DNA of 64,000 bases from a virus. Positions 1-64,000 of the stretch are shown here, in pieces. The stretch spans positions 64,001 to 128,000 of IMG/VR virus record IMGVR_UViG_3300044846_002555. One strand, 5' to 3'. A program made the translations under genes and the position numbers. The notes beneath the pieces were generated by a model, which saw only the letters and a program-made list of their open reading frames with translations, was not told the origin of the DNA and made no database searches. How positions within the stretch are numbered: the stretch's first letter is position 1; each line of letters opens with the position of its first letter.

Positions 1-2
1 TT

Positions 3-3000
3 GAGGTTGAGCCGTTATGGGGTCAACCTGAAATATGTAATTTGGGTATAACAAGAACTGATTTTGATTTATCTAAAGAATCCGGTATTGATATTAGACC
101 AACATCCATCTTTATGGGTTCGATTGTTTCAAGTAACGATGACGAAGCCCTTCCAAGAAATTGTAAACCCCGACTTAAATCCGGTTCACAATGTACTTTA
201 GTGACCGGTCCGGGAGAAATATTGGCTATAAGACAAACTATTTTTTTAGACGCTCAAGGTAAACCAATTTTAGAGACAGTGGATTTAGAAGAGGGTGGTC
301 AAGTTATTGATGATAATGGTGCGTGGTTAGTAGATGTCCCAATGAATTTGGATTATTTAATAACTAATGAGTTTGGTGAACAAGTTATATCTGATGACCC
401 TAAAAAAGGTATTCCAACTAAAGGTAAATATCGTTTCAAAGTTAAATGGAATCAATCACCATCAATATCAGAACCTGTTAGAAGAGGGTATTTTTTAGTA
501 CCAAATGTTAAAGAACATGGTTGGACTAATAGTGGTTCAAACCCAAACGCAACACTTAAAAAAAAGTCATACGCGTTTAGTTTAGATTGGGATGATTATG
601 TTGATTTTCAATCGGCAATAGATTGTACAGATACGTTTTATTTAATGCAATATAATAAAGTTTATACTGTCTCTCAATTAGTTGACCAATATAGAAAAGG
701 TTATTTAAATACACAATTTATAGGTATTAAAAATATTTTAGATGAATCTTGTGAAAGTGAAAATAACAAGTTCCCAACAAATGATGGTGTTTTTAGGTTT
801 GACTTAATTTATTTTTTATTTTGGATTATGTTATTTTTATTCAGACCGGTTTTTATATCATTAATACCTGTTATTCATATTCTTTGGTTTGTTCTTAAAA
901 TTTTAGCATTACTTTTAACAGTGATTATCGCTATTATTATGACAGTTGTTATTTTAATTTGTAATATTTTATATGGTATTGTAAGTGTTTTGGCTAATTT
1001 ACCTAATTGGTTAGGTGGTAAAACATTTAAAAAATGGAAAGATAAATTGGATTGTCCTACTTTTGCGGATTTAAATAAAATGATAAAGGATATTAATGAA
1101 TTTCCTGATAAATTAAAAAACATTAAAATACCTAATTTATCATATCCTGAATGTTCATTTTGTGATTGTGGGGATAACAGTAATTTACCTAAAGATGAAC
1201 CGGGTGTGGAACAGTTAGCGGTAGATACTGAAGATGTTACACAATATGAAGGGGTTGGTACGTCGTTACTAACACCATTTCAAATTTCTTCACAATATGG
1301 TAATAAACCTAGCTATTCAGGAACATCAGGTAACCCTGGTATTTATAGCTCAGATTCTAACTATCAGTTTATGTTTGCGGGGCAATCTTTAGGGTTTACT
1401 GAACAGGAAACTTTAACGGTTTCTACTAGAGTACCTGAAATGGTGATATCTACAAATAATGATGAGAATACCGCGGCTAGTGGTACATCAGAACCTGATT
1501 CACCAGAGTTTGCATATTTCACATCAAGTTTAACTATACCTGAAAGATTAAATTTATTTAACACCAAGGCAAAATATTTTAATGAAAGTCCTAGTAATCC
1601 GGGAGGTGGTGTTAATAGAATTAAAGTAACATTTCAACCGAATTTGAATAATCCATTAACTAAATTTCACTATGATAATGTAATCGCGATTGTTTGTACA
1701 CCAAATGCTACTAATTTAGAACCTGGTACCATGTTGTCTTTCCAAGATTTTGCACTATCAAAAGATAAAAATGTTATTAATACCGGAACAACATTAAATG
1801 AGTATGGTACAAATACCATTACAGGTACGACAATAAATAGTGGGTCAACAACTAATCCCGGAACAATAAAAATTAACTATGCGAATCCGAATGGTTCGGG
1901 TAATATGCCTACAGAGGTAGAATATCAAATTGTTACTTTTTCAGGTGACCCTAAATATGCTAGATTCCCTATGGATGTTGAATATTTTCAAGTTATTACA
2001 GGTATGACTTATTCTGAATATAGCGGAATGTGTAATAGTAACACGGCTTCATCACCTAATGATTGGAATAGTAATAATTCATTTAATAATAGGTTTTTAA
2101 GTAACGATATGAGATTTTATCGTATAACTCAATTTCAAACTGATGATACAGTAAGTGGGTTTCCTTGTGGTAGACCATTATCTTGGGATACTACTGAAAG
2201 GTTTTTTTCTCCTGTCGAGTATTATAAATCAATTGAGAAACAAAGAGTCATATTTTTAGTTAGAGGTGTTGACCCTAATTCATCTAGAACTAAAGTTCAA
2301 TATGATTTAAGTCGATTATTTGGTTATAATTTTGGTAATTCATCAACAATAATAACAGGTAATAATTATAAATTAAATTACCCAATTCAAGGTACTTTAA
2401 ATTGTGTTAATCATATTACCACAAGTAATTTAACATCTAATTTTTATTTTAATTCGTTTCGTTTTGAACCATCTATAACACCACCTCCACCAACAGTTCT
2501 ACCACCACTACCACCATTACCTGAAACGTTTGGTTTTAGTTCGTTCACGAGTAATCTACATACATTTTATTCTAATCTAGATTCGACAAATGGTAGTTTT
2601 ACTCCCGGACAAGGGGCTCTACCATTGTCGTCAGTCACATTACCATCATCTTCCCCAATTAAAGTGGTTAATGATTACATAAATAATTCTCCACCACCAT
2701 TTTCATTTTCGGATGGAACACAAGGTTGGAATGGGTTTATTGTTGAGTGGGATATTCAGTATACTCGTCTTGTTAATTGTGTTGGGCCTTTTACTAAACT
2801 TTATAATAGAAGGGCCGGTACTGAAAATGTGTCACCAACTGATAATAGAGGTTACTATCCTGGTGAGATTGTTGAGGGTGGTTCAATGTTTTATCAAAGA
2901 TTAAATATAAACCAAGCCATATCGCCAGACCCACTTTTACTTGATAATGTTTACTACGCACCAAAATATCCAAGCTCGGGAACAACACCTGCAGAAATTA

Positions 3001-63755: not shown

Positions 63756-63832
63756 ATTACAAAAATAATTGAAGTTAATACAAAGAGAAGTGTTTAAATC
63801 TTTTGTGTTATATTTATATATAAATATTTATT

Positions 63833-64000
63833 ATGGCAAAAAGATTTATAATTACTGAAGAAGAAAAAGGCGATATCCTTTCTAAATATGGTTTAGTTAG
63901 TGAGCAAATGAACCAACAAAAGGCGGTTGATACTCAAATGGAAAAAATTAAACCTGAAACTGGTGGTAAATATTGTTTTGGTGACCCAAAACGACTTCAA
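63833..64000 (+). CDS. 3'-truncated protein with leader MAKRFIITEEEKGDILSKYGLVSEQ
   Basis: Open to the window end; TATTTAT at 63811 and 63825. Confidence 0.6.
   Translation, partial: MAKRFIITEEEKGDILSKYGLVSEQMNQQKAVDTQMEKIKPETGGKYCFGDPKRLQ

Follow-up and report, generated by a model that had tools for sequence, protein, structure and literature searches.

Excess of CCGG in a T4-like jumbo phage fragment: codon-boundary context, displacement from avoided CCAG/CTGG and probable sparing by a methyltransferase

The tetramer CCGG is strongly over-represented in the 64,000-bp stretch of DNA analysed here (the window), which corresponds to bases 64001–128000 of the linear 142,859-bp IMG/VR record IMGVR_UViG_3300044846_002555 (hereafter the record; CheckV completeness 46%). 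In the lineage of the window, the excess was explained to within ~25% by generic sequence context together with displacement of codons from the avoided neighbour words CCAG/CTGG. CCGG itself has been spared, probably through a protecting DNA methyltransferase of the predicted N4-cytosine type encoded at 62272–63135 (+ strand). We favour this combined reading with moderate confidence.

The window contains 154 CCGG along its whole length (1–64000), or ~2.4 per kb, against expectations of 38.7 from base composition (GC-content 31.6%), 59 from a first-order and 114 from a second-order Markov model. A first-pass annotation, made from the letters of the window alone, had claimed a strong excess in an AT-rich genome. 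The CCGG positions it listed in the first 4.8 kb were exact in 19 of 19 cases, and the excess holds for the whole record as well, with 336 evenly spread sites versus 84 expected from base composition (4.0-fold). The word is common on both gene blocks, as had been noted, with 2.9 and 2.1 sites per kb in the plus-strand blocks and 2.6 per kb in the minus-strand block. Also in line with that annotation, GGCC, GCGC and CGCG are rare in the window (11, 9 and 20 occurrences). GATC is absent from it, and CCAG/CTGG, CATG, TCGA, GCGC and AGACT/AGTCT are strongly depleted. Inside genes lie 333 of the 336 CCGG of the record, 189 as CCG-G and 141 as NCC-GG (hyphens mark codon boundaries), the junctions through which the word had been proposed to arise; G follows 189 of the 296 CCG codons. 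In 6 kb of non-coding DNA there were three CCGG sites, and the enrichment was not seen.

Comparison with relatives was possible at scale. Thousands of metagenomic relatives share the tail sheath at 60–97% identity, on contigs of up to 322 kb, and three of them are complete or nearly so: G037 (the record of locus L126; 308,574 bp, complete, with terminal repeats) and two others of 318 kb and 272 kb. The window is therefore a piece of a ~310-kb T4-like jumbo phage of an abundant uncultured clade. The record encodes a contractile tail of T4 type, with sheath, gp19-like tube and baseplate J proteins, as well as DnaB, ribonucleotide reductase, an SNF2 helicase and SbcC.

How large the excess appeared varied with the null model. 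The 139 open reading frames (ORFs) called cover 96% of the record, and synonymous codons were shuffled within each gene, keeping the proteins and per-gene codon usage. Under this null, 333 CCGG were observed against 160 expected (2.08-fold, z-score +17.9), the strongest over-representation of any tetramer. The excess thus outlasts a plain control for amino acids and codon usage, and at that level the observed/expected ratio (O/E) is not near 1. A dinucleotide-preserving shuffle left an excess of 1.12-fold. The frame-specific null, in which maximal-order Markov expectations were derived for the three codon frames one by one, gave 333 versus 244 (1.37-fold). Finally, the sister-context model, which predicts CCG-G and NCC-GG from the shortfall seen in CCA-G and NCT-GG together with a generic rule for codon boundaries, gave 267 versus 211 (1.27-fold).

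The generic context is common to the clade. Dinucleotide bias was alike in CCGG-rich and CCGG-poor genomes (CC/GG 1.35–1.42, AG/CT 0.80–0.86). The boundary rule held for Thr, Ser and Ala codons in all genomes: before G, A-ending codons dropped to 0.5–0.6, C-ending codons rose 1.3–1.7-fold and G-ending codons rose 2.1–2.6-fold. The non-palindromic words CCTG and CAGG, which also absorb codons displaced from CCAG/CTGG, were enriched about equally with CCGG. In the record, the frame-specific Markov ratio of 1.37 for CCGG stood beside 1.39/1.45 for CCTG/CAGG, with a sister-context ratio for CCGG of 1.27. The same three values were 1.33, 1.30/1.49 and 1.07 in G039; 1.30, 1.33/1.43 and 1.13 in G037; 1.35, 1.20/1.41 and 1.06 in G040; 1.15, 1.15/1.25 and 0.91 in G044; 0.40, 1.31/1.41 and 0.19 in G035; and 1.45, 0.90/0.88 and ~2 in G031. 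Because the excess in this lineage largely follows from context and displacement, no CCGG-favouring force is required. A 4-fold palindrome excess, and even a 2-fold one under codon shuffling, can therefore arise without a word-favouring mechanism. A spared word beside a purged word, together with codon-boundary context, suffices, and sister-word and frame tests discriminate between the two situations.

True positive enrichment over 'baseline' relatives was considered and rejected. At the same aligned codons, 281 CCGG were counted here versus 74 in these relatives, and 240 versus 22 in CCGG-free relatives; TCCGGA numbered 71 here versus 0 in the aligned comparison. The 'baseline' relatives use NCC-GG 3–15-fold less than NCC-GA, NCC-GT and NCC-GC. 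Because NCC-GG lies below its sister contexts, they are CCGG-avoiders themselves.

CCAG/CTGG showed the opposite bias to CCGG, with 128 occurrences versus 513 in the codon shuffle (O/E 0.25, ~4-fold down, z-score −24.3). It is the most under-represented tetramer by z-score, ahead of GATC (0 versus 272); CATG (108 versus 253) and TCGA (108 versus 261) were also depleted in the record under the codon-aware null. A transition from CTGG/CCAG to CCGG is synonymous only in CCA-G and NCT-GG and alters the protein in xCC-AGx, xxC-CAG, CTG-G and xxC-TGG. The O/E was 0.28 in the two synonymous frame classes (112 versus 402) and 0.15 in the four nonsynonymous classes (16 versus 109), and depletion was present in six of six frame and orientation classes (0.07–0.35). 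In the record, a Trp codon is never preceded by a fourfold-degenerate C-ending codon. Since the depletion extends to protein-changing frames, the word itself is selected against; that is, CCAG/CTGG is selected against at the level of DNA.

The frame pattern bears directly on a mutational drive from CTGG/CCAG to CCGG, which could act through Vsr-like T:G-to-C:G repair by host or phage, or through protection of N4-methylcytosine from deamination. The rise of CCGG and the fall of its inner transition neighbours are what such a drive predicts, and ~60–75% of the displaced CCA-G and NCT-GG codons do reappear as the rare CCG-G and NCC-GG. However, CCAG/CTGG are depleted no less in nonsynonymous than in synonymous frames, CCT-G gains as well, and G035 and other relatives have lost CCAG/CTGG without gaining CCGG. 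In close relatives CCGG alternates mostly with CCTG/CAGG, which requires transversions, and less with CCAG/CTGG. This pattern came from polarising orthologous substitutions, for which distant relatives were saturated. The outer transition neighbours TCGG/CCGA are unchanged (339 versus 336 expected), so the depletion of one-transition neighbours anticipated by the first-pass annotation was found for CTGG/CCAG and not for TCGG/CCGA. Genes for Vsr (PF03852) and C5-methylase (PF00145) were found neither in the record nor in the complete or near-complete, CCGG-rich genomes G037, G039 and G040. We consider such a drive very improbable, and the site-biased repair proposed in the first-pass annotation is not supported, given the frame test, the relatives without CCGG gain and the lack of the repair genes in the phage genomes searched.

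The model for a drive of this kind is the footprint left by very-short-patch repair in E. coli (Dcm/Vsr), reportedly described by Bhagwat and McClelland in 1992 and by Merkl et al. in 1992. The two cases share an enriched word resembling a methylase target and a depleted one-transition neighbour. They differ in that no Vsr or C5-methylase was found in the four genomes searched here, and in that the neighbour depletion is independent of synonymy and extends to relatives without the enrichment. An origin of the excess wholly from a CCAG purge via transitions was likewise rejected, as relatives avoid CCAG without gaining CCGG; this by-product-only reading is also contradicted by group E, which gained CCGG without avoiding CCAG.

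The purge of CCAG depended on the upstream base. YCCAG had an O/E of 0.09–0.13 (~10-fold purge) and RCCAG of ~0.4 (~2.5-fold), and CTAG behaved similarly (RCTAG ~0.7 versus YCTAG ~0.39), so that sites with an upstream purine survived 2–4 times better in both words. A rule by which only sites after a G survive was not found. The purine effect may point to a target word that is longer or degenerate, for instance YCYRG, from which CCGG would be exempt. CCAG/CTGG, and YCCAG especially, is thereby flagged as a candidate target of a widespread host factor, and a host defence of a new kind that recognises the asymmetric YCCAG/CTGGR is possible. No known enzyme was matched to CCAG/CTGG.

Across its relatives, the clade shows variable, restriction-like word avoidance, in which the avoided set differs among close relatives. 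At sheath-centred loci, GATC is missing from one entire subclade and normal in others, and individual lineages have almost no CATG, TCGA, TGCA or AGACT. For CCGG, the loci L030 and L037 have no site where 15 are expected, and others exceed base composition 3–4-fold. GATC is completely absent from the 143-kb record (0 of ~408 expected) and from G037, G039 and G040 (272–318 kb; 0 of 802–907 expected). CATG and GATC both stand at 0 of 885 in G037, while G031 (the record of L081) has no TCGA in 224 kb (0 of 628 expected). CCAG/CTGG is avoided by almost the whole clade, lineages with normal or purged CCGG included; its O/E in synonymous and nonsynonymous frames was 0.51 and 0.25 in the 'baseline' relatives and 0.48 and 0.33 in the CCGG-free relatives. 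A group comprising L047, L081 and others is CCGG-rich and does not avoid CCAG. With hundreds of related ~310-kb phage genomes that have purged different words, the clade amounts to a natural experiment.

These patterns resemble the restriction-site avoidance known from virulent phages, for example those free of GATC. Shared features are avoidance on both strands and in all frames under codon-aware nulls, complete loss of GATC, an avoided set that changes fast between relatives, and a phage methyltransferase accompanying tolerance of one site. The difference is that the strongest word after GATC here is the asymmetric CCAG/CTGG, of which 129 copies are left.

Several longer, asymmetric words are also specifically purged in this sublineage. 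AGACT/AGTCT occurs 21 times in 143 kb versus 280 expected from base composition. Against the aligned codons of relatives, the counts were 5 versus 203 for AGACT/AGTCT, 4 versus 84 for GGACAT/ATGTCC, 0 versus 66 for CATGTC, 0 versus 55 for CCTAAG/CTTAGG and 0 versus 49 for the CCGCGG-type word CCGCG.

The candidate CCGG protector is a beta-class DNA methyltransferase of 287 aa (62272–63135, + strand; PF01555, E-value 4.8e-35). It carries TSPPY, of the N4-cytosine type, at residues 29–33 and FMGSGT at residues 234–239, so that S-P-P-Y lies N-terminal to the F-x-G-x-G S-adenosylmethionine (AdoMet) motif within a PF01555 protein. The same order of motifs, with S-P-P-Y/F before F-x-G-x-G, is found in N4-cytosine beta-class enzymes such as M.PvuII (PDB 1BOO). 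Matches in the PDB had E-values of 1e-14 to 1e-19 and included N4-cytosine enzymes; unlike for the M.PvuII type, the best matches also included N6-adenine enzymes (CcrM, RsrI, MboIIA), and cytosine N4 is the predicted site of methyl transfer. Homology to NCBIfam and PDB entries gave no specificity for the methyltransferases. The enzyme was present at an identity of at least 90% in more than 120 protein clusters. It forms a conserved island, being 67–100% identical across relatives when neighbouring proteins are 30–55% identical, and it is the sole PF01555 gene product in the complete G037 and the 91%-complete G040. In G037, two methyltransferase genes were detected in all.

The CCGG state of the genomes is associated with the clade of this methyltransferase. 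Among 160 IMG/VR loci collected for carrying the enzyme, the 64 whose enzyme was at least 75% identical to that of the window had median CCGG O/E values, relative to base composition, of 3.2–4.3 (minimum 1.8). The median was 0.83 for the 55 loci with a 65–70% identical enzyme, several of which were near zero. The enzyme tree splits into two clades with 100/100 support, matching the CCGG split; fixed differences between them include HRVRQT versus HRSKTT and GRWEYF versus GQWNYF. With maximal-order Markov expectations, clade 1, to which the enzyme of the window belongs, had a median CCGG O/E of 1.41 (0.96–1.97; 41 dereplicated loci of at least 9 kb), and no locus fell below 0.5. In clade 2 (42 loci), the median was 0.58 and 43% of loci were below 0.5. 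Of the 4-bp palindromes, CCGG alone had a median exceeding 1 in clade 1. Clade-1 lineages vary in their avoidance of GATC (kept in G044), CATG, TCGA, GGCC and GTAC, and none avoids CCGG. The first-pass annotation had named the SPPY enzyme as a candidate writer behind the CCGG excess; its link to the CCGG state across relatives supports an involvement, but as a factor that spares CCGG rather than creates it.

The CCGG state is a genome-wide property and is not confined to the surroundings of the methyltransferase gene. G035, which encodes a clade-2 enzyme, is CCGG-poor throughout. In the structural module it is closer to the record than G037 and G040 are (sheath identity 79% versus ~70%), and in the replication and methyltransferase module it is farther away, with 65.6% average identity versus 72% over 72 shared proteins. 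Structural modules and replication/methyltransferase modules thus give opposite orders of relatedness between the record and G035, G037 and G040. Since word usage is uniform within each mosaic genome, word composition re-equilibrates after exchange. A synteny test with the neighbouring gene 58607–59989 recovered only methyltransferase-bearing, CCGG-rich loci, and was uninformative because the neighbouring genes are too variable.

Taken together, the favoured reading runs as follows. Short-word avoidance of the kind expected under restriction pressure shapes the genomes of this clade, and in the lineage of the window CCGG is the only 4-bp palindrome free of counter-selection. Three ordinary sources feed the raw 4-fold excess. 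The first is clade-wide composition and codon-boundary context (CC/GG 1.4-fold). The second is the strong avoidance of CCAG/CTGG, through which Pro-G and Thr/Ser/Ala-Gly junctions come to use CCG-G, CCT-G, NCC-GG and NCA-GG. The third is the absence here of the CCGG purge seen in many relatives. CCGG is most likely spared because the conserved clade-1 SPPY enzyme methylates it; the phage DNA would thereby become insensitive to CCGG-cutting enzymes, which may have driven sister lineages to lose the word. This reading predicts that clade-1 enzymes methylate CCGG and that clade-2 enzymes do not.

Alternatively, the excess may have the same origin in displacement and composition, in a sublineage whose hosts have no CCGG cutters, the methyltransferase being uninvolved and methylating another site. 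This is an unlikely explanation, although it gains from the fact that the association comes down to one deep branching of the methyltransferase tree, that clade-2 enzymes are orthologous and similar over their full length, and that TGCA and AGCT are also seldom depleted in either clade. What speaks against it is the breadth of the pattern. The 41 clade-1 loci have very different avoidance profiles, which implies varied hosts or restriction repertoires, and still none of them avoids CCGG; avoidance of CCGG is common in clade 2 (43% below 0.5) and among sheath-defined relatives.

Several observations weigh against sparing by methylation as the full account. The 1.27-fold residual in the record is mainly due to NCC-GG (126 versus 84). 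A plain 4-bp restriction target would not be expected to leave 129 CCAG/CTGG sites in place. The distant relative G031 has no SPPY methyltransferase and does not avoid CCAG/CTGG (1.34–1.41), yet it is CCGG-rich, and its CCGG ratios (1.45 by the frame-specific Markov model, ~2-fold in the sister-context model) exceed what context explains; this genome encodes four C5-methylases, three in tandem and a fourth, at 106213–108760 and 153342–154277. The association with the enzyme clade is one deep tree split and so a single evolutionary contrast, which could come from shared ancestry or shared hosts, and the two enzyme clades are 67–70% identical with no obvious swap of a recognition domain. Finally, restriction enzymes as the selective agent and CCGG as the target of the 62272–63135 enzyme are both inferred, the latter with indirect support from the SPPY motif and from CCGG tolerance that follows the enzyme clade.

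The same residuals leave some room for positive maintenance of CCGG, in which methylated sites would be useful to the phage. The precedent is Helicobacter, in which CCGG accounts for 41 of the 47 orthodox type II sites found over-represented (Kr 1.4–1.5), a result left unexplained (Rusinov et al. 2015, BMC Genomics 16:1084, PMC4687349). Helicobacter shares with the phage clade an AT-rich genome, heavy restriction-modification pressure, a CCGG excess of ~1.4-fold and depletion of other palindromes (PMC4687349). It is, however, a bacterium with a CCGG restriction-modification system, whereas the excess in this phage clade is mostly traced to codon-boundary context and displacement from an avoided neighbour, and CCGG-purged relatives are available for comparison. 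Maintenance would fit the finding that no 4-bp palindrome other than CCGG exceeds expectation in six genomes, the 1.27-fold residual here, the ~2-fold residual in G031, where no CCAG avoidance feeds CCGG, and a methyltransferase far more conserved than its neighbours. We nevertheless regard it as quite improbable, given residuals of 0.9–1.1 in four other clade-1 genomes, equal 'enrichment' of the non-palindromic CCTG/CAGG, and 6 kb of non-coding DNA with three sites and no enrichment. Spacing of CCGG was near exponential (coefficient of variation 0.90; longest gap 1827 bp versus ~2465 bp expected), and long gaps were not short in number. There is thus no sign of selected CCGG placement, and even spacing, considered as a feature of its own, was dropped as close to random. 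The selected CCGG signal offered by the first-pass annotation is not supported: the context-aware nulls leave 1.1–1.4-fold, the same as for CCTG/CAGG. Neither a Vsr-type drive nor such a signal is needed.

It is rather unlikely that CCGG is actively kept dense, with methylated CCGG functional in these jumbo phages, and that this is the same phenomenon as in Helicobacter. If maintenance were true, the clade, whose members range from CCGG-free through neutral to CCGG-rich and carry two enzyme types, would be the first system for dissecting the phenomenon. The explanation by displacement and context that we favour may also apply to CCGG in Helicobacter.

Two small genes of 78 aa (beginning MSENKEMVNHPEHY) and 103 aa lie at 61192–61714 (+ strand), just upstream of the methyltransferase, in DNA that clade-1 loci have conserved. 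In the record, a gene for a 190-aa acidic protein (61716–62288) sits between them and the methyltransferase, which is followed on the opposite strand by a gene for a 207-aa protein (63132–63755). Outside this record, the two flanking proteins occur only in a few near-identical contigs, which suggests that their genes were inserted recently. No significant family match was obtained for either; the one of 190 aa gave a sub-threshold hit to PF18406 (E-value 0.004). A minus-strand ORF at 61177–61581, considered as a gene unique to CCGG-rich genomes, was rejected as spurious antisense over the two small plus-strand genes.

Two further genes of the window are related to methylation. A D12-class (Dam-family) N6-adenine methyltransferase with a DPPY motif is encoded at 52068–52916 (+ strand; PF02086, E-value 3.5e-27; TIGR00571), and its orthologues in relatives are 42–69% identical. 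The GATC-free genomes, namely the record, G037, G039 and G040, each encode a methyltransferase of this family (D12, DPPY). The gene at 38532–40988 (+ strand) encodes a protein of 818 aa whose Eco57I-type methylase domain scored just past the cut-off (PF07669, E-value 1.2e-05); tblastn gave no match for it in the six other genomes of the seven compared.

No close deposited phage was found for the record: the top sheath match was 31% identical, and a 20-kb megablast query returned zero matches among deposited phages. A search for related loci with a 1723-aa protein found nothing, and a tRNA scan of the 64-kb window gave zero tRNAs. The host search in cellular genome bins yielded only 3-kb phage contigs binned into metagenome-assembled genomes of Aquiluna and Thiobacillus. 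The window also encodes a full-length phage DnaJ (50857–51774), with a J domain, a zinc-finger domain and a C-terminal domain.

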